This document shows, in pieces, positions 20,208 to 29,334 of a stretch of 64,000 nt of DNA; positions within the stretch are counted from its first letter, which is position 1, and every line of letters starts with the position of its first letter. Where the stretch lies: IMG/VR virus record IMGVR_UViG_3300021171_000006, positions 1 through 64,000 of that record; one strand, 5' to 3'. The translations under genes and the position numbers were made by a program. The notes under the pieces are model-generated. The model saw nothing but the letters and a program-made list of their open reading frames with translations. It was not told the DNA's origin and ran no database searches. The stretch is from a virus.

Positions 20208-20281
20208 GGGGTACTCGTCCAATGGGAGGGCTCCTGTTTTGCAAGCAGGCAATCGGGGTTCGATTCCCCGGTACTCCACCA
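20208..20281 (+). tRNA. tRNA-Ala(TGC)
   Basis: Cloverleaf, G3:U70, CCA. Confidence 0.9.
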
Positions 20282-20285
20282 ATTC

Positions 20286-20359
20286 GCGGCCATCGTCTAA
20301 CGGCAAGACACGAGTCTGCCAGTCTCGGAATAGGGTTTCGACTACCCTTGGCCGCTCCA
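20286..20359 (+). tRNA. tRNA-Gly(GCC)
   Basis: Cloverleaf, U73, CCA. Confidence 0.85.
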
Positions 20360-20363
20360 ATAT

Positions 20364-20458
20364 GGGCGTCGGCTCTGGTGAGCGGGTGCGCCTTATAAGC
20401 GCGCGAGAGCGGGCGGACGGCCTGCAACGGTAGGGATCGTAACCCTAGACGCCTCCCA
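20364..20458 (+). tRNA. tRNA-Ile(TAT) with long variable arm
   Basis: CT-TAT-AA loop; V-arm GCGGGC/GCCTGC; C73; CCA. Confidence 0.75.
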
Positions 20459-20462
20459 TTTA

Positions 20463-20534
20463 TGCGGGTAGACCAAGGGTCCACTTAGGCTCATAACCTA
20501 GGAGGGGTCGGGGCAGTACCGACACCCGCAACCA
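20463..20534 (+). tRNA. tRNA-Met(CAT), fMet-like acceptor
   Basis: TGCGGGT/ACCCGCA; CT-CAT-AA; atypical T-loop. Confidence 0.75.
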
Positions 20535-20537
20535 TTC

Positions 20538-20613
20538 GCCCAGATAGCAAAGGTAGTCCTCGCGCGCCGTTGAAGGCGACGAAATCTTGGTGCGATCCCA
20601 AGTCTGGGCACCA
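20538..20613 (+). tRNA. tRNA-Phe(GAA)
   Basis: GCCCAGA/TCTGGGC; TT-GAA-GG loop. Confidence 0.75.
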
Positions 20614-20614
20614 C

Positions 20615-20689
20615 GCGGCTATGACCGATTGGCAAAGGTCTCAGTCTTCCAAACTGAAGTTCCGGGTTCGATTCCCGGTAGCCGCTCCA
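20615..20689 (+). tRNA. tRNA-Gly(TCC)
   Basis: Cloverleaf, CCA. Confidence 0.9.
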
Positions 20690-20696
20690 GTTTCAT

Positions 20697-20774
20697 TGGC
20701 GGGTAGCACTCAGGGTGAGCGCGTCCGGCTGTTAACCGGAATTGAGGTCGGTTCGATCCCGACCCCGCCAGCCA
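20697..20774 (+). tRNA. tRNA-Asn(GTT)
   Basis: Cloverleaf, G73, CCA. Confidence 0.9.
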
Positions 20775-20776
20775 TT

Positions 20777-20844
20777 ACCGCCGCGATCCGGGATCAACGG
20801 AGCCTCCAAAACTCCGGATGAGGGTTCGACTCCTTCCGGCGGTG
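20777..20844 (+). tRNA. tRNA-Trp(CCA)
   Basis: CT-CCA-AA loop; minimal D-arm; no encoded CCA tail. Confidence 0.75.
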
Positions 20845-20848
20845 CTAA

Positions 20849-20923
20849 GTCCCGATGGCAGAGCGGCAAATGCGCGGGTCTGCAAAACCCGTTACGCCGG
20901 TTCAACTCCGGCTCGGGACTCCA
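20849..20923 (+). tRNA. tRNA-Cys(GCA)
   Basis: Cloverleaf, U73. Confidence 0.9.
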
Positions 20924-20930
20924 GTTTGAT

Positions 20931-21005
20931 GGCGGGTATCGTCTAATGGTAGGACGGGAGATTGTGGATCTCCTAACGCGGGTTCGATCCCCGCTACTCG
21001 CCCCA
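20931..21005 (+). tRNA. tRNA-His(GTG)
   Basis: G-1:C73, cloverleaf. Confidence 0.9.
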
Positions 21006-21079
21006 GCCCGGTCAGCACGATGGCCGTGCAGCGGTCTTGTAAACCGCTGATGGGAGTTCGATCCTCTCACCGGGCACCA
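21006..21079 (+). tRNA. tRNA-Thr(TGT)
   Basis: Cloverleaf, CCA. Confidence 0.88.
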
Positions 21080-21162
21080 GACAAGAGGAGGGGGTATGAT
21101 GGTCAATCAGGACGACATTCGCCTTCTCCGGGAGATCACCGCGCGGCAGCGCGATGAGTTGA

Positions 21163-21237
21163 TGGGGATTAGCACACCAGCTAGTGCATCGGTCTCTGAC
21201 ACCGAGGAATCCGGGGCGGCACCGGAATCCCCTTCCA
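21163..21237 (+). tRNA. tRNA-Gln(CTG)
   Basis: CT-CTG-AC loop; T-loop GGCGGCA. Confidence 0.8.
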
Positions 21238-21245
21238 ACACAGAC

Positions 21246-21320
21246 GGCGGGTTTTCGAGTGGCCTCGACGCGAGTCCTTGAAATTCGTAGATCAGGGTTC
21301 GATCCCCTGGCCCGCTTCCA
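21246..21320 (+). tRNA. tRNA-Gln(TTG)
   Basis: CC-TTG-AA loop (C33); CCA. Confidence 0.75.
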
Positions 21321-21396
21321 CGCTCCTTCGGCTACTGGCTAGGCCGCCACCCTCTCAAGGTGGAGAAGTCGGGATCGAAACCCACAGGAGCGACCA
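21321..21396 (+). tRNA. tRNA-Glu(CTC)
   Basis: CCACC-CTCTCAA-GGTGG; CCA. Confidence 0.82.
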
Positions 21397-21402
21397 GTTT
21401 AT

Positions 21403-21477
21403 GCCCCGCTAGCCCAACTTGGTAGAGGCGCCTGATTTAGGATCAGGAGGTTCGGCGTTCGAGTCGCCGGCGGGGTA
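21403..21477 (+). tRNA. tRNA-Leu(TAG), short variable loop
   Basis: TT-TAG-GA loop; A73; no encoded CCA. Confidence 0.85.
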
Positions 21478-21478
21478 C

Positions 21479-21564
21479 GGAGGGCGCCGCTAAATGGCTG
21501 GCGACTGGTCCTGAAAACCAGGGTTTCCGAAAGGATAGGGGTTCGATTCCTCCGCCCTCCGCCA
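21479..21564 (+). tRNA. tRNA-Ser(TGA)
   Basis: Long V-arm, G73, CCA. Confidence 0.85.
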
Positions 21565-21569
21565 ATCAT

Positions 21570-21657
21570 GGAAGATGCTCGGGCTGGCTCCCGAAGCGGT
21601 TTGCTAAACCGTAGTGGCTCGCAAGGGCCAATGGTTCGACGCCATCATCTTCCGCCA
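21570..21657 (+). tRNA. tRNA-Ser(GCT)
   Basis: Long V-arm, G73, CCA. Confidence 0.88.
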
Positions 21658-21659
21658 CC

Positions 21660-21733
21660 GCCTTCGTAGCACAACAGCAGTGCGCCGCTTTGGTAAGGCG
21701 GAAATCCCGGAGCATCACCGGGCGAAGGCTCCA
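21660..21733 (+). tRNA. tRNA-Thr(GGT)
   Basis: TT-GGT-AA loop; T-loop AGCATCA. Confidence 0.82.
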
Positions 21734-21734
21734 G

Positions 21735-21818
21735 CCGTGGTGAAACCGCGAGGCTGCGGAACGTGTCTGTAAAACACGGCCCTTCGGGGGAGCTGTTCGA
21801 TTCGGCCACCACGGACCA
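21735..21818 (+). tRNA. tRNA-Tyr(GTA) with C1:G72
   Basis: CT-GTA-AA loop; V-arm; CCGTGGT/ACCACGG-A-CCA. Confidence 0.8.
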
Positions 21819-21823
21819 ATTTT

Positions 21824-21899
21824 GCCGGCGTCTTCCAACGGCCAGGAAGCCCGCCCGATAAGCGGGTAACGTTCGGTTCGACTCCGACCGCCGGTCCCA
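21824..21899 (+). tRNA. tRNA-Ile(GAT)
   Basis: CC-GAT-AA loop; C73; CCA. Confidence 0.85.
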
Positions 21900-21903
21900 G
21901 TAT

Positions 21904-21977
21904 GGGCTCGTAATTCAATGGTAGAATAGCTGGCTCTTAACCAGCCCATGAGGGTTCGATTCCTTCCGGGCCTACCA
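21904..21977 (+). tRNA. tRNA-Lys(CTT)
   Basis: Cloverleaf, CCA. Confidence 0.9.
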
Positions 21978-21980
21978 CTT

Positions 21981-22055
21981 GCGCCTGTCGCACTCTGGGA
22001 GTGCCGCCGCCTGTCTAGCGGATGCAGGAGGGTTCGATCCCCTTCGGGCGCGCCA
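21981..22055 (+). tRNA. tRNA-Asp(GTC)
   Basis: CT-GTC-TA loop; G73. Confidence 0.82.
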
Positions 22056-22056
22056 C

Positions 22057-22133
22057 CTGCGCGTTACGGTAGCGGCTAACCGCCCTGGTTTGGGACCAGG
22101 AATTCGGGGGTTCGAGTCCCTCCGCGCAGACCA
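22057..22133 (+). tRNA. tRNA-Pro(TGG)
   Basis: C1:G72, A73. Confidence 0.88.
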
Positions 22134-22138
22134 TTTTC

Positions 22139-22210
22139 GCCCTTCTCAGCGGACCTGGGCGCGGGTTTCCTAAACCTGCTGACGCGGTTCGACTCCGCGG
22201 AGGGGCGCCA
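22139..22210 (+). tRNA. tRNA-Arg(CCT)
   Basis: TT-CCT-AA loop; CCA. Confidence 0.82.
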
Positions 22211-22213
22211 ATA

Positions 22214-22291
22214 CGGGGTGTAGCTCAGTCAGGCCAGAGTGTCCGGTTCGGAACCGGAAGATCGGTGGTTCAAATCCACCCACCCCGACCA
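22214..22291 (+). tRNA. tRNA-Pro(CGG)
   Basis: Cloverleaf; A37. Confidence 0.9.
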
Positions 22292-22295
22292 ATTT

Positions 22296-22369
22296 GCCTC
22301 GCTCGTCTAATGGTAGGGCCGCTGGCTTACATCCAGCAGATGGCGGTTCGATTCCGTCGCGAGGTACCA
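22296..22369 (+). tRNA. tRNA-Val(TAC)
   Basis: Cloverleaf, CCA. Confidence 0.9.
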
Positions 22370-22443
22370 CGCGCGGTCGTCTAAGGAAGGACACTTGCCT
22401 TTCAAGCAGGGTAACGCGGGTTCAAATCCCGTCCGCGCGACCA
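22370..22443 (+). tRNA. tRNA-Glu(TTC)
   Basis: Cloverleaf, CCA. Confidence 0.88.
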
Positions 22444-22447
22444 ACTC

Positions 22448-22519
22448 GCCCTCACCAGTGGATCTGGCTTGGTGGCTACGAACCACCTATGCGCGGTTCG
22501 ATTCCGTGTGGGGGCTCCA
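22448..22519 (+). tRNA. tRNA-Arg(ACG)
   Basis: CT-ACG-AA loop; CCA. Confidence 0.85.
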
Positions 22520-22523
22520 TTCC

Positions 22524-22596
22524 GGGCTTAGCGCTGGGACGCGGGCGGGTCTTCTAAACTTGCCGACGCACGGTTCGATTCCGTGTAAGCCCACCA
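22524..22596 (+). tRNA. tRNA-Arg(TCT)
   Basis: CT-TCT-AA loop; CCA. Confidence 0.82.
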
Positions 22597-22597
22597 T

Positions 22598-22669
22598 GCG
22601 CTCACCAGCGGATCTGGCGTCTGGCCTCCGAAGCCGGAATGCGGCGTTCGACTCGCCGTGGGCGCGCCA
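22598..22669 (+). tRNA. tRNA-Arg(CCG)
   Basis: CT-CCG-AA loop; CCA. Confidence 0.85.
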
Positions 22670-22672
22670 TTT

Positions 22673-22749
22673 GGGCGCCTATGCAAATTGGCAAAGCAGT
22701 TTCGCTCAAAACGAAATGTATCAGGGTTCGACTCCCTGGGCGCCTACCA
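22673..22749 (+). tRNA. tRNA-Leu(CAA), short variable loop
   Basis: CT-CAA-AA loop; A73; CCA. Confidence 0.85.
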
Positions 22750-22750
22750 T

Positions 22751-22825
22751 GCCTCGCTGGTGTAACGGCAGCATATCCGGCTTTTAACCGGTAAGGACAG
22801 GGTTCGAATCCTTGGCGGGGTACCA
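22751..22825 (+). tRNA. tRNA-Lys(TTT)
   Basis: Cloverleaf, CCA. Confidence 0.88.
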
Positions 22826-22827
22826 TA

Positions 22828-22901
22828 GCTGGCGTAGCATAGCGGCAGTGCAGCCGGTTCGTACCCGGCCGACGCTGGTTCGAGTCCAGCCGCCAGCACC
22901 A
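22828..22901 (+). tRNA. tRNA-Thr(CGT)
   Basis: Cloverleaf, CCA. Confidence 0.88.
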
Positions 22902-22912
22902 GGAGCACCACG

Positions 22913-23485
22913 ATGTCATCCGCAGCCCGGAAGCTAGGATCGCTGCGGACGCTTGTGCTCAATGCCGATGGCCGCCCTCTGACGACTTGGCCGCTCAGCC
23001 TTGTCTCGGCTCAAGATGCGGTTTCGACGATCTGGCGTGATCGCGCCTACGTGGTCGAGACATGGGAGGATGCGTTCTTTCGTTCGCCCTCCGTGACGAT
23101 CGCGGTGCCGAAGGCGATGATGCTGCGCGAGTATGCGCACACCGGAAAGCACCCGAAGTTCTGCCGGGCGTCGATCTACCTGCGTGATCGGTTTACGTGC
23201 CAATTCTGCGGCAAGCGATTCGAGCGCTCCGAGTTGACGTTCGACCACCTGCTGCCGCGCCGGCTGGGCGGACGCACGGTATGGGACAACATTCTTTCGG
23301 CGTGCCTGCGGTGCAACGCACAGAAGGGCGACCGCACGGCCGAGCAAGCGGGCATGCGTCCGCTGAGCCTGCCGCGCCAGCCGACCACGGCAGAATTGCT
23401 ACGTGCGGGGCTTGAATTGCTGCCCAACGACATCCGCGACGATTTTGGTTCCTGGTTGTATTGGAACACACCGCTGCAAAGCTGA
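22913..23485 (+). CDS. HNH endonuclease associated with the tRNA array
   Basis: LVLNAD N-terminus; RDRFTCQFCG...TFDHLLPR..GG...N...CLRCN..KG. Confidence 0.9.
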   Translation: MSSAARKLGSLRTLVLNADGRPLTTWPLSLVSAQDAVSTIWRDRAYVVETWEDAFFRSPSVTIAVPKAMMLREYAHTGKHPKFCRASIYLRDRFTCQFCGKRFERSELTFDHLLPRRLGGRTVWDNILSACLRCNAQKGDRTAEQAGMRPLSLPRQPTTAELLRAGLELLPNDIRDDFGSWLYWNTPLQS

Positions 23486-25644: not shown

Positions 25645-25926
25645 ATGAAGCGAATCTTGTTCGCGGGTTTGGGCGCTCTCGCCATCATGGCCGGCGCCGG
25701 CTCCGGTGAGGCACAGATCGGGGGCGCGGGGGTCGTGAGATCGACAGCGGCGACGCTCGGCTACCTGCAATTCTTTACCCCGCCGCCGCTGAACAATCAG
25801 TTGAGCGATACGCAGCTTTGCAAGGGGTGGCCGGTCCCGAGTTTCACCCAGCAAACGGGACTCGTGGGGGGATACGCGATCCTCTACGACGCCAGCGGCA
25901 AGCCTCATTATGTTCCGGGTTGCTGA
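25645..25926 (+). CDS. Small exported protein
   Basis: Signal peptide ending GEA/Q. Confidence 0.6.
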   Translation: MKRILFAGLGALAIMAGAGSGEAQIGGAGVVRSTAATLGYLQFFTPPPLNNQLSDTQLCKGWPVPSFTQQTGLVGGYAILYDASGKPHYVPGC

Positions 25927-25930
25927 GTTG

Positions 25931-26650
25931 ATGAACACGAAGCGCCCGCCCGCGATCATGATTGGGGTGCCCTCACCCGGATTCTGGAAAGCCAAGATGG
26001 GGGTCGACACGCTGTCGATGGCGCTGTGGGCGGCCTATCACGGCATTTATATCGAGGCGCGCGGCGCCGAGGGCGCTTACACCGAGGCAAACCGCAACAA
26101 CATTGTACGGGCGGCGCTCGACTACAAACACCCGATTGACGCGATCATGTGGATCGACGCGGATATGCGGGTTCTCCCGCAAACGCTGCTCCGGCTGTGG
26201 AAATATGGCCGGGACATCGTGGGTGCCAACTACCGCGAACGCGAGCCGCCCTACAGCCATCTCGGCAAGTTCTCCAACGAGCGGGACGCCAAGGCCAAAG
26301 GTGGCATCCATGAGATGGATCTGATGCCGGGGGGCATGATCCTCGTGCGCACAGCGGTTTATCGCAAGCTGTCGGCGCCCTGGTACAAGCTCGACGACGA
26401 CGGTTTGCGCGACGACTACTACTTCTGCACCAAGGCGCGCGAGGCTGGCTACAAGGTCTGGTGCGACATGGAGCTGACCCGCACCGTTCGCCATCGCGGC
26501 GACAACGATGTGTGGTGGTATGGGGAGGGCGAGGAGCCGGTCGCGAGGGCCGATCCGCGTCAGCCTGTCTTCGATATTCCGTCTCTGGTCGGGCGTGCCG
26601 GGCTAGAGAACGGGGCGGCTTTCCCGGCACCGGAGAAGGTAGCATCATGA
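25931..26650 (+). CDS. Glycosyltransferase-like protein (GT-A/GT2-like)
   Basis: IGVP, NRN, MWIDAD (DxD), DDYYFC..AREAGYKVWCD. Confidence 0.75.
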   Translation: MNTKRPPAIMIGVPSPGFWKAKMGVDTLSMALWAAYHGIYIEARGAEGAYTEANRNNIVRAALDYKHPIDAIMWIDADMRVLPQTLLRLWKYGRDIVGANYREREPPYSHLGKFSNERDAKAKGGIHEMDLMPGGMILVRTAVYRKLSAPWYKLDDDGLRDDYYFCTKAREAGYKVWCDMELTRTVRHRGDNDVWWYGEGEEPVARADPRQPVFDIPSLVGRAGLENGAAFPAPEKVAS

Positions 26651-27165
26651 ACGCTTTGAGAAAGACCCTCCTTGGTGGCGTGTCGGCGGTTGCGCTGCTC
26701 GCGCTCCCGATCGCTGGCGAGGCCGACGTACCCGGCACCTCCGTCACTCAGACCGCGACGCATCTTGACGCGGCGGTGATCTGGCAGGGCGAGGCTGCGG
26801 GGGCAACCTCGTGCAACGCCGTGTCGGCGACATCGGCCTCGGATACGATCACAATCACCCCGCCGGGCGGGCAGTACGTGTACCTGACCAACTTCCTCCT
26901 GCAGCACTCGACGGACGCGACCGGCGCGACCGAGGTGCCGACGATCTCGATGACCAACATCGGCACCGGCGGCTTTCCGGCATTCCTCTCGGCGGCATCG
27001 ACCCTGGCGACCACCGGCTACACTGTCAACGTCGACATTCCGTTCGGCGTCGGCGGCCTGAAATCGGCTGCCGCGGGCGTGGCGGTGACCTTCGTCCCGT
27101 CCGCGACCCTCTCGGCGCACACGATCATGTGCAACTCGGTGACGTACTACCTGAACGCGAACTGA
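26647..27165 (+). CDS. Exported beta-rich protein
   Basis: Signal peptide ending GEA/D. Confidence 0.65.
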   Translation: MNALRKTLLGGVSAVALLALPIAGEADVPGTSVTQTATHLDAAVIWQGEAAGATSCNAVSATSASDTITITPPGGQYVYLTNFLLQHSTDATGATEVPTISMTNIGTGGFPAFLSAASTLATTGYTVNVDIPFGVGGLKSAAAGVAVTFVPSATLSAHTIMCNSVTYYLNAN

Positions 27166-27171
27166 GGCCAC

Positions 27172-27672
27172 ATGCGCTGGAAGCTCCTTCTCGGGCTCGC
27201 AGCGGGGCTCGCGGCCACGGGCATCGTTCTGTGGGCACCGTGGGCCTCGCCGCCGCCTTTGCTTTACGAGACGGTCAGTGGCTACCCGATGCGGGTCTAT
27301 TACCGCAATCGCGGCGTCTCTCCGGCGGCGGTGCGCGCGGTCAACGCGATGCCGGCGCTCAGCGTCGACAAGCCGTTGACCGAGGAACAGATCGACAGGT
27401 ATCTCGCCGAGGTCAAGGCGCAGATAAAGCGCGCTCCTACGATCGTCGCGCCGGGCGATTTCATGTGGTTTGTCGCCGATGACCCGGATGAATTGGCGTG
27501 GATGCCGGCGAAGACGGAACACACGACATGGCTCTATATCTTCGGCGTCGTCGAGATGCCGAGATCCAGCGTGGTTGACACCAAATGGGTCAGCGAGCTT
27601 TGCCTTGTCTCGAAGACCAAGGAGCCGTTCAGGCCCTGCGATAGACACAACGACGTATACGCCGGCAGCTGA
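27172..27672 (+). CDS. Membrane-anchored/exported hypothetical protein
   Basis: N-terminal hydrophobic segment. Confidence 0.6.
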   Translation: MRWKLLLGLAAGLAATGIVLWAPWASPPPLLYETVSGYPMRVYYRNRGVSPAAVRAVNAMPALSVDKPLTEEQIDRYLAEVKAQIKRAPTIVAPGDFMWFVADDPDELAWMPAKTEHTTWLYIFGVVEMPRSSVVDTKWVSELCLVSKTKEPFRPCDRHNDVYAGS

Positions 27673-27674
27673 AG

Positions 27675-27700
27675 AGGGGGAGCGATGAACGCCCCACCCT
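27675..27700 (-). terminator. 3' hairpin of the pentamer RNA
   Basis: AGGGUGGGGCG-UUCAU-CGCUCCCCCU; the G.U pair forms only on the minus strand. Confidence 0.55.
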
Positions 27701-27790
27701 CGCCCATACCTTGCCGCGCCCCGCCGCAGCCTACCGCACCGTACCTAGGCACAGCACACCGGACCGGAGCCCACCGCGCCGTAGCACGCC
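27701..27790 (-). repeat. Degenerate 5-nt tandem array
   Basis: GGCgt GCTac GGCgc GGTgg GCTcc GGTcc GGTgt GCTgt GCCta GGTac GGTgc GGTag GCTgc GGCgg GGCgc GGCaa GGTat GGGcg. Confidence 0.9.
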
Positions 27791-27799
27791 GGGAACGGA

Positions 27800-27829
27800 A
27801 GAATACCGATCGGTGTGATTTTCTGTCAA
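27800..27829 (-). promoter_or_regulatory. Sigma70 promoter for the pentamer RNA
   Basis: TTGACA-N18-TATTCT. Confidence 0.75.
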
Positions 27830-27845
27830 CATTGGGAGATCGCTG

Positions 27846-28541
27846 ATGGCGGCCCCAAGTTTGGCGGTTTTTCAAACCGGCGGCGCGGCTGTCACCGGCG
27901 ACAATTTGAACTCGATGGTGCAGTCATGCGATACGATGAGCGAGCTTCGTGCTCTCGTCGGCGTCGCTGGGATGCAAATCTTTGTTCGGGGGCAGAGCGC
28001 TCCAAACGACGGGCTTCAAGGCAACTTCTACTGGAACGTCAACGGCACGGCACCCGATGACAATGGCGTGACGACGGTTGTCCCCTACGGGGCCGGGTCT
28101 GGAGAATGGACGCGGATCATCAACCTTTCCCCAAGGGGAACGTTAGCCACAACCTACCCCCCTAATCCGTCCGGAACGACCAGCCTCATAGGCGTTATGA
28201 TGGGGTTGGGGATGACGTTTACGCCCACGAAATCGGGCAATTTCCTGCTCATGGCCACCGCCATTATTTACAATGCGACATCGGTCGATGGCGTTACGGC
28301 TGAGTTGCGATATGGCATAGGGACCGCGCCTTCCAATGGAACCCCCCTAGCGGGCACCAACATATGCGTGGCCGGCGAAAATAATATCCCCGCCGCAACA
28401 GCATCGACTCCGGTTGCTCTAATAGCATTCGTGGGTAATTTGACGGTCGGGGTCACATATTGGCTTGATTTGTCCCTGGCGGCTATTGCGGGGGGGACAG
28501 CAAACGCTATCAATGTGACATTGACGGTCGTCGAGTTATGA
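27846..28541 (+). CDS. Tail fibre/appendage protein without signal peptide
   Basis: G..APNDGLQGNFYWN...DDNG..V.P..GEW.R motif seen at tailspike N-termini. Confidence 0.65.
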   Translation: MAAPSLAVFQTGGAAVTGDNLNSMVQSCDTMSELRALVGVAGMQIFVRGQSAPNDGLQGNFYWNVNGTAPDDNGVTTVVPYGAGSGEWTRIINLSPRGTLATTYPPNPSGTTSLIGVMMGLGMTFTPTKSGNFLLMATAIIYNATSVDGVTAELRYGIGTAPSNGTPLAGTNICVAGENNIPAATASTPVALIAFVGNLTVGVTYWLDLSLAAIAGGTANAINVTLTVVEL

Positions 28542-28912
28542 TCCGCGCAGTCATTATTGGGCTGTTCGTGTTTTTCGCTCTGCCAGCATTGGCGCAGCCG
28601 GGAGCCTGTCTTGATCCGTCGCAGTCCTGGTCGTGGAGTTACTCGGTTGGGCCGATCTCCTCGATCAACTATTATCTCGACAGCCAGGTTCTCGCGGTCG
28701 CGTACAATGATGGCGTCGAGCATCTGCTGAACGGCGTGCCGACCAATGTCGCGCAGCGCTTTCAGATCGGCTACGGGGTATCGCCGGCCTCGATCTGGGC
28801 CGGGATGCGATACGGCTATCTGGAGATTCTTCAAAGCCAAGTTCACTGCCCATTACGCTCGCAGTCCGGTGAGTTTTTGCTTTCCGCTGCACAACACGAC
28901 ACCCCCCAATGA
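28538..28912 (+). CDS. Exported KTSC-like domain protein
   Basis: Signal peptide ALA/Q; ISSINY..SQVLAVAYNDG....GVP. Confidence 0.55.
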   Translation: MIRAVIIGLFVFFALPALAQPGACLDPSQSWSWSYSVGPISSINYYLDSQVLAVAYNDGVEHLLNGVPTNVAQRFQIGYGVSPASIWAGMRYGYLEILQSQVHCPLRSQSGEFLLSAAQHDTPQ

Positions 28913-29334
28913 AACGCTGGTTCCTCGTTTTCGCTCTGTTGATCCTGGCGCTTATCACGCCCAATCGGGCGTGGTCCCAGAGCTCGTTCTACAATTGCGC
29001 GATCGTCATCCCGAACCCGCCCGCGACGCAGTTTGCCACGCCGGCCGCCAGCCCGACGATCTGCAACCTTGACCCGCAGCGCATCGTCTCCGGTGCCGGC
29101 GTTGGATTGATCCTCAATTTCTCGCCGGGCGCTGTCGCAACCGTCAGCGTGCAAGTCACCGGCGACCAGAACCCGGCAGGCGCGACGGCGGCGTGGAACA
29201 ACCACGACTACATGTTCAACCTCACGAGCTCGATGAACGGCAACATCATCATGCCGCTGACGGCTGTGCGCCTTTACCTGACGAGGTACACATCGGGCAC
29301 GATCACGCTCTATCTGGTGGAGGCCGCGAAATGA
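28909..29334 (+). CDS. Exported beta-rich protein (paralog of 25203-25640)
   Basis: Signal peptide AWS/Q; shared motifs. Confidence 0.7.
   Translation: MKRWFLVFALLILALITPNRAWSQSSFYNCAIVIPNPPATQFATPAASPTICNLDPQRIVSGAGVGLILNFSPGAVATVSVQVTGDQNPAGATAAWNNHDYMFNLTSSMNGNIIMPLTAVRLYLTRYTSGTITLYLVEAAK

Follow-up and report, generated by a model that had tools for sequence, protein, structure and literature searches.

A candidate solo VIPR guide RNA beside the tail-fibre gene of an uncultured phage, most likely directed at the fibre gene of related phages

An array of five-base repeats, wedged between two genes of the tail module of an uncultured phage, is in our reading a solo vrRNA of the VIPR kind, which would be loaded with Vipr in trans and most likely silences the fibre gene of rival phages while the resident allele of that gene escapes. 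We assign this reading a probability of roughly 0.7. The array lies in a stretch of 64,000 nucleotides (positions 1 to 64,000 of the IMG/VR virus record IMGVR_UViG_3300021171_000006, hereafter referred to as the window), which forms part of a 91-kb genome.

VIPR is a CRISPR-like, wobble-skipping DNA silencer of phages, in which Vipr, a small Cas7-like RAMP protein, polymerises on vrRNAs composed of GGY-NN repeats and a structured tail. The variable dinucleotides (NN) of the vrRNA pair with double-stranded DNA under a rule that skips one nucleotide at a time, with the skipped base being the codon wobble position; no PAM is involved, the site may lie on either strand, and transcription is repressed once the site is bound, the natural targets being competing phages and satellites (bioRxiv 10.64898/2026.04.26.720920). 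In the filament, one Vipr protomer is present per repeat, and R-loop growth sets out from the 3' end of the vrRNA, where the tail lies; moreover, the Vipr of SUSP1 reads the second G of the unit specifically (10.64898/2026.04.26.720927). Members of the class are discrete small RNAs of some 100 nt or more, and their tail is an invariant pseudoknot or hairpin that is conserved among the vrRNAs of one Vipr clade. In complete systems they adjoin vipr, which encodes a RAMP of ~20 kDa with a G-loop and a thumb, usually together with an accessory vap gene. Solo vrRNAs were described in October 2026 in F5 satellites and in VIPR-null SUSP1-like phages. Those carried by 346 enterobacterial VIPR-null phages are aimed at vipr genes, at other vrRNAs or at satellites; the self-match of the published solo vrRNAs is lower than their non-self match, and early codons are targeted (bioRxiv 10.64898/2026.10.15.759431).

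Results

A pentamer array in gapped register with the start of the neighbouring gene

Direct reading of the sequence revealed 18 consecutive five-base units (Table 1). The earlier note had recognised this dinucleotide array, although it placed it at 27701-27899, a span that has to be corrected to that of the table. On the + strand, from 27706 onwards, each pentamer consists of NN followed by R-S-C (ACC, GCC, AGC or GGC), and the NN series is as previously listed, i.e., AT TT GC CC GC CT GC GT TA AC AC GG GG CC GC GT AC GG. The functional reading, however, is that of the minus strand (G-G/C-Y-NN), where the units take the form Y-NN-G-G/C; 13 of them end in GG and five in GC, with nine different NN being used. 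These are the traits by which the vrRNA repeat is defined, namely tandem YNNGG / GGYNN pentamers in at least four units, with a conserved triplet and a variable NN. Only one such array was found in the 91-kb genome.

When the NN series was compared with the first two positions of codons 1-18 of gene 27846..28541, 12 of the 18 units and 27 of the 36 bases were equal, in codon register from the ATG and with the wobble base as the skipped base. This is the count that had been claimed before, and it was borne out on re-reading the sequence. Expressed for the minus strand, the NN of the guide are complementary to codon positions 1-2 from codon 18 down to codon 1 of the tail-fibre gene start. The mismatches of the resident allele fall in codons 2, 5, 6, 9, 10 and 14, and the match amounts to 12/18 bases in the tail-proximal half of the guide versus 15/18 in the other half. 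The idea that the array is a stretched copy of the resident gene was rejected, since the third bases of the units agree with the wobble bases of gene 27846 at only 2 of 18 positions and hence show no relation to them.

Several controls were applied to this match. A scan of the window on both strands (~128,000 positions) returned 12/18 only at 27846, the next best value being 8/18 at one site. The earlier note had proposed shuffling the NN order as a null distribution; in 5000 such shuffles, the maximum within 27000-29000 was 9/18, and 12/18 was never reached. On both strands of the 91-kb genome, the real guide attained 27/36 once (next best, 22/36), while one in 1000 unit-shuffled guides reached 27 anywhere in the genome. 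Alternative spacings with 0, 2 or 3 skipped bases gave maxima of 22, 21 and 22, respectively, compared to 27/36 with the 1-nt skip. The proposal that the RNA pairs two bases and skips the wobble base coincides with the published VIPR mechanism (10.64898/2026.04.26.720920), and only the 1-nt skip gives the match here. Finally, the guide was run against 3.2 million positions from 220 loci, both unrelated and related, in which the background maximum was 24/36. Sites with 27/36 were confined to three start codons, all of the same gene family: the resident, L009:355 and L160:3001. The code match is not due to chance.

Table 1. Features in and around the array; positions are those of the window
Feature	Position	Strand	Description
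Upstream neighbour gene	27172..27672	+	166 aa; N-terminal hydrophobic leader; no family
Weak terminator-like stem, then T-rich run	27641..27664	-	possible vrRNA 3' end
3' tail hairpin	27674..27701	-	directly after the last repeat; GC-rich stem, 5-nt loop; fold of 176 nt, z = -2.7
53-codon ORF, regarded as spurious	27685..27846	+	open; preceded by GAGGGGGAG; ends in TGATG
Guide tract of the putative vrRNA	27704..27793	-	18 Y-NN-G-G/C units
Sigma-70-type promoter of the vrRNA, predicted	27800..27829	-	TTGACA, 18-nt spacer, TATTCT; 10/12 consensus matches
Tail-fibre / receptor-binding protein gene, predicted	27846..28541	+	231 aa
Resident near-target	27846..27899	+	codons 1-18 of the tail-fibre gene; 27/36 informative bases (75%)

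A predicted minus-strand small RNA gene

Judged by its sequence signals, the spacer that separates the two + strand tail-module genes (173 bases) appears to be taken up in full by a single gene for a small RNA, encoded on the minus strand. The promoter-like site is the sole one of its kind in 600 bases (one observed versus 0.2 expected in shuffles), and the transcription start predicted from it, at ~27794-27792, falls on the first repeat unit. At the opposite end, the terminator-like stem overlaps the last codons of gene 27172..27672. The product of this upstream gene is not a Vipr. Searches at the array with Rfam yielded no match, either in the window at the gathering threshold or in six array loci at a permissive threshold.

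The + strand of the same tract could alternatively be a leader devoid of any guide, acting either as a translated uORF of 53 codons, coupled through TGATG to the fibre gene, or as a C-rich, periodic element for protein binding or Rho loading. Its strand is indeed C-rich, and the ORF is open, with a run before it and an overlap at its end that would suit translation (Table 1). Nevertheless, we consider this very improbable: a five-base period cannot come from coding constraint, and a leader accounts neither for the in-register agreement (27/36) with the start codons of three family members nor for a repeat identical to that of Vipr-associated arrays. Furthermore, it is the + strand side of the tail hairpin that mimics a Shine-Dalgarno sequence, and its loop holds the ATG of the ORF; because the two signals are the stem and the loop of the minus-strand hairpin, the ORF is regarded as spurious. 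TRAP-like, Rho-loading and leader-peptide readings of the + strand were dropped, as they leave the in-register code match unexplained.

Arrays of the same architecture in IMG/VR and their Vipr

A search with the pattern (RSC-NN)x14 retrieved at least 120 IMG/VR loci (L040-L159), often with several arrays per locus, on contigs ranging from 39 to 76% G+C; the arrays were frequently located outside long ORFs. A protein family of ~204 aa adjoins them in 52 loci when ORFs are considered, and in 60 of the 81 usable loci by six-frame search. The C-terminal end of this family carries a G-loop-like GxGDFRPxYGRF motif, and its profile matched PDB entry 36pp, 'SUSP1 Vipr protein', with E = 8e-22. Since the array-adjacent family matches a Vipr, arrays of this architecture are true VIPR guides. 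The fetched stretches of the other 21 usable loci contained no SUSP1-type Vipr; Vipr proteins of other types, or solo vrRNAs, may be present there. The array loci in IMG/VR therefore offer a ready pool for further Vipr types or solo guides.

Three of these loci (L066:1085-1318, L147:6585-6797 and L156:8910-9154) displayed a best in-locus match under the 1-nt skip of 69-73%, on the opposite strand and 86-142 bases upstream of the vrRNA 5' end, a geometry like that in the window. A Vipr lies near the array in L156, but not in L066 or L147, and none of the partial matches, all of them weak, coincides with a clear gene start.

With regard to the tails, that of the putative vrRNA did not match in sequence any of 333 tails belonging to other arrays in the sampled IMG/VR loci. 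A solo vrRNA would be expected to have its tail in common with the vrRNAs of the element whose Vipr it exploits. Four Vipr-positive loci (L134, L105, L054 and L069) share a tail layout consisting of a short ACACA linker, a GC hairpin and a TCAG / TTTGC motif. The tail studied here, a hairpin followed by TCTTCAGC, recalls this layout, although without sequence homology.

No recognisable vipr gene in the phage genome

We also searched the genome of the phage for a Vipr of its own. The Vipr profile gave no match among ORFs of at least 70 aa (the best E value, 0.02, belonged to a spurious antisense ORF), nothing in a six-frame genome search, and a best probability of 1.9% when aligned by hhalign with 85 non-overlapping ORFs; the G-loop motif was likewise found nowhere in the genome. 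A SUSP1-type vipr is consequently absent from the genome, whereas a Vipr recognisable only by structure would escape these searches. There is no vap gene beside the array either, its neighbours being the hydrophobic-leader protein and the tail-fibre gene. Profiles of clusters 1-8 of array-adjacent genes hit only generic phage domains in the genome, namely T5orf172 and HNH. Two ORFs were accordingly discarded as VIPR-linked candidates: 22913-23485, which resembles array-adjacent ORFs of L143 and L138 and is only an HNH endonuclease, and 86123-86716, which matches cluster 4 and is only a T5orf172/GIY-YIG-like domain protein.

The latter ORF, on the minus strand outside the window, encodes 197 aa with the T5orf172/GIY-YIG-like domain at its N-terminus and a probable helix-turn-helix at its C-terminus. 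Similar domains adjoin VIPR arrays in L054, L072, L105 and L134, which is probably a coincidence of phage gene content. The former directly follows a tRNA cluster (window 20208-22901) in which ARAGORN found 25 genes, all on the + strand and 17 of them reaching the Rfam threshold; these are the 25 tRNA genes of this uncultured phage of 62% G+C.

As for the completeness of the genome, bases 17-142 are identical to the last 126 bases, and the preceding 16 bases agree at 13 of 16 positions (1-142 versus 91212-91353). This identical overlap of the ends is a circular-assembly overlap, which makes a complete genome of about 91.2 kb probable. CheckV estimated a completeness of 59%, and the genome is classed as linear; a protein of this genome was also found on a 91,789-base contig from another assembly, and the phage occurs in three assemblies altogether. 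With one array and no vipr in the whole of a probably complete element, the array is to be seen as a solo vrRNA on a VIPR-null phage.

The VIPR-null state would also suit an anti-VIPR competitor, i.e., an RNA that loads and diverts the Vipr of a VIPR-positive rival in order to protect this phage from the guides of that rival, with occupancy of the protein mattering more than the site spelled. There is a precedent in satellites, whose solo vrRNAs divert the Vipr of the helper phage and neutralise its VIPR; redirection to real decoy sites was required in that case, however, and loading alone was insufficient (10.64898/2026.10.15.759431). The present guide instead singles out one family of phage structural genes, as opposed to a host repeat present in many copies, and its tail is unlike any sampled Vipr-associated tail. 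A competitor role therefore seems to us quite unlikely.

The adjacent gene as a predicted receptor-binding fibre

The protein encoded by gene 27846 has full-length relatives that are 38-77% identical to it. Its N-terminal ~95 aa constitute a conserved domain, which is also fused to quite different C-termini. In P0011-P0023, proteins of 138-372 aa, this N-terminus (window 27846-28130) is 53-77% identical and is followed by unrelated, often glycine-rich C-termini; the modular anchor domain is labelled PF27114 in a precomputed table. For the C-terminal domain, modelling gave a TNF-like jelly roll, whose best Foldseek matches include the tail protein of cyanophage A4 (9k09) and the binding domain of the short tail fibre of cyanophage A-1(L) (8ke9). 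Based on the jelly-roll model, the matches to cyanophage tails and a tail-fibre PHROG just downstream of the gene, the product is predicted to be a receptor-binding fibre whose conserved N-terminus acts as the anchor. Elsewhere in the tail-fibre module, upstream of the vrRNA, a glycosyltransferase-like gene (window 25910-26650) was noted from weak Pfam and PHROG matches.

The allele spelled by the guide

Read as codon prefixes, the guide gives M-(L/F)-A-P-A-L-A-V-Y-T-T-G-G-P-A-V-T-G, an allele that departs from the resident one in six codons. With the exception of position 2, each spelled residue occurs at the same position in some member of the family; in particular, A5, Y9 and T10 are present in P0003 and P0005, and G-G-P-A-V-T-G in P0012. 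A search with the spelled peptide as such matched only P0011. The earlier note would have been refuted if no homolog matched the guide better than the resident, which is not the case: the L009 allele, with 27/36 bases, agrees in 13/18 units, compared to 12/18 units for the same 27/36 bases in the resident. In addition, a match of 28-31/36 (78-86%) is predicted from the amino-acid sequence of P0003, the closest relative (77% identical), and one of 27-30/36 from that of P0005.

Both VIPR papers set the level of a natural target at an NN match of at least 80%, and the DNA of the resident, L009 and L160 stands at 75% in each case. No target DNA with an NN match of at least 80% was found in the 3.2 million positions of the 220 loci. 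The gapped-pattern database search that had been suggested brought no further allele to light, as half-guide patterns gave 0 exact matches in IMG/VR; an 8-unit core pattern gave six chance matches there, with 19-23/36, and a pattern for the N-terminus of P0005 gave 0 matches. In a phage GenBank collection, there were 0 DNA matches and one distant protein match. Thus, concerning the claim that the homologous tail gene of a competing phage is targeted, the match is confined to start codons of this family, while no allele is proven to reach 80%. IMG/VR, metagenomes and GTDB genomes yielded relatives of the fibre gene, none of which had an upstream array or a spacing-5 copy of its own start, and for this reason conservation is unusable as evidence.

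Two alternatives bear on these figures. Firstly, the vrRNA, with Vipr supplied in trans or from an undetected gene, might bind the resident site 27846-27899 despite its six mismatched units and tune or time the phage's own fibre gene and the genes downstream. The best site in its own genome is after all the start of the adjacent gene, beginning only 17 bases past the vrRNA's own -35 box, and the partial matches in L066, L147 and L156, with their opposite orientation and their distance of 86-142 bases upstream, hint at a recurrent cis layout. These cis matches are, however, weak and not at gene starts. Moreover, the resident match of 75% lies below the 80% level, self-matches stay below 80% in both papers (10.64898/2026.04.26.720920; 10.64898/2026.10.15.759431), and the first of them reported no self-targets above 80% and found silencing to be abolished when NN pairing was perturbed (10.64898/2026.04.26.720920). 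The resident mismatches are mostly tail-proximal, where R-loop formation starts, a distribution that also speaks for the preferred reading, and the mismatched positions of the guide spell residues of other alleles, as expected of a non-self target. Self-regulation is hence unlikely.

Secondly, the array might be a relic, that is, the decaying remnant of a VIPR locus or of a horizontally acquired guide, which is no longer expressed or loaded. The genome contains no vipr or vap, five of the 18 units deviate from GGY, and no 80% target emerged from the 220 loci or from the half-guide patterns in IMG/VR. Against decay, the 18 units are uninterrupted, a near-consensus promoter starts on the first of them, and the tail hairpin has been kept; the array gene fills the 173-base spacer with no trace of deleted genes, and published vrRNA callers tolerate internal degeneracy (10.64898/2026.04.26.720920). 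We judge a relic to be decidedly unlikely.

Discussion

Silencing of the rivals' fibre gene by a solo vrRNA, the reading that we prefer, can be laid out as a series of steps, of which the expression of the vrRNA, its loading with Vipr and the identity of its true target are what we infer from the array, the family-specific code match and the promoter-like and hairpin signals. To judge from the sequence, host RNA polymerase would start early at the sigma-70-type promoter and produce an RNA of 18 pentamer units with a hairpin tail. As is known for the class, Vipr would then hold the G-G/C-Y triplets, one protomer per unit, and present the 18 NN, and the filament would read double-stranded DNA two bases on and one off, thereby blocking transcription at the site bound. 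Because no recognisable vipr is present in the genome, Vipr must come in trans; its source would be the host, a prophage or a VIPR-positive phage that infects the same cell, in line with what has been proposed for the published solo vrRNAs. In this way, the fibre gene of closely related competing phages would be silenced at its very start, and the resident allele, with its 75% falling short of a target-level match, would escape through six changed codons. Besides the lack of an 80% target among the loci and patterns searched and of any similar tail among the 333 compared, it speaks against this explanation that five of the 18 units have C in place of the second G, the base that SUSP1 Vipr reads specifically, and that the RNA has no known partner in the form of a Vipr or a vap.

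We may further speculate that the guide and the mismatched resident fibre allele form a linked 'weapon plus immune allele' cassette, which moves with the tail-fibre module by recombination, and that their adjacency possibly reflects the birth of the guide from a copy of the neighbouring gene. Such a cassette would account for the distance of no more than 51 bases between the guide and the resident copy of the targeted gene; if it exists, any recombinant that acquired the guide but not the resistant allele would be silenced by its own guide. We regard this extension as doubtful. The pair formed by the resident and the spelled allele nonetheless bears on how self-avoidance and guide origin work in VIPR, for which we know of no adaptation machinery. 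It also provides a concrete pair of sequences for measuring the NN mismatch tolerance of the system.

The gapped code, the inter-phage role and the solo state were all published in 2026. What is new is the detail, namely a structural tail-fibre target, a distance of 51 bases between the guide and the resident version of the gene that it targets, 18 units with G-C-Y variants and a non-enterobacterial setting. If our reading holds, the solo-guide strategy, published only for enterobacterial phages and satellites, would also be used by an unrelated environmental phage of high G+C. Guides could then aim at a structural gene, in this case at the part of a receptor-binding fibre gene that encodes the conserved N-terminal anchor, beginning with the start codon, and could sit directly beside a mismatched resident allele of their own target.

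Comparison with known systems

The closest likeness is with VIPR type II, as present in Escherichia phage SUSP1 and in a Pseudomonas fulva prophage, where Vipr and vap are encoded together with vrRNAs. Both are built from pentamers in tandem, in which G-G-Y is constant and NN variable, both skip a single base per unit on the codon wobble, and both have a structured tail after the repeats; genes of competing phages are the targets in type II and the presumed targets here. In contrast, neither vipr nor vap is found adjacent to the array or anywhere in the 91-kb genome; the array has 18 units, five of which read G-C-Y, compared to the 9-16 units reported for type II; and its tail is unrelated in sequence. 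Furthermore, the type II array flanks a two-gene operon, whereas here a single RNA is wedged between structural genes.

The published solo vrRNAs (10.64898/2026.10.15.759431) resemble the one proposed here in standing alone on an element without vipr and in their presumed use of the Vipr of another element. The non-self match of the published guides exceeds their self-match, and that of the present guide equals it in bases or, as predicted for P0003, exceeds it; the footprint is wobble-aligned on early codons in both cases. The targets differ, being host REP decoys, vipr genes, other vrRNAs and satellites for the published guides and a tail-fibre gene family, beside the resident allele, for the present one. 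The carriers differ as well: the former come from enterobacterial phages, and the latter from an uncultured phage of 62% G+C, with a tail not tied to any known Vipr clade.

Phages also carry mini-CRISPR arrays or solitary repeat-spacer units, which are virus-borne guides without an effector that are aimed at related viruses. They share with the putative vrRNA a dependence on an effector encoded elsewhere and the direction against a close competitor. Their code is contiguous, however, while here it is gapped (two on, one off), with the scaffold repeated inside the guide; likewise, a CRISPR guide is one spacer between repeats, unlike a VIPR guide. As regards the effector, Vipr is a Cas7-like RAMP, and in the Cascade/Cas7 complexes of Class 1 CRISPR, RAMP protomers similarly polymerise along the guide and interrupt its pairing periodically. 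The period is six with five bases paired in Cascade, whereas in VIPR it is five in the guide and three in the target, with two bases paired.
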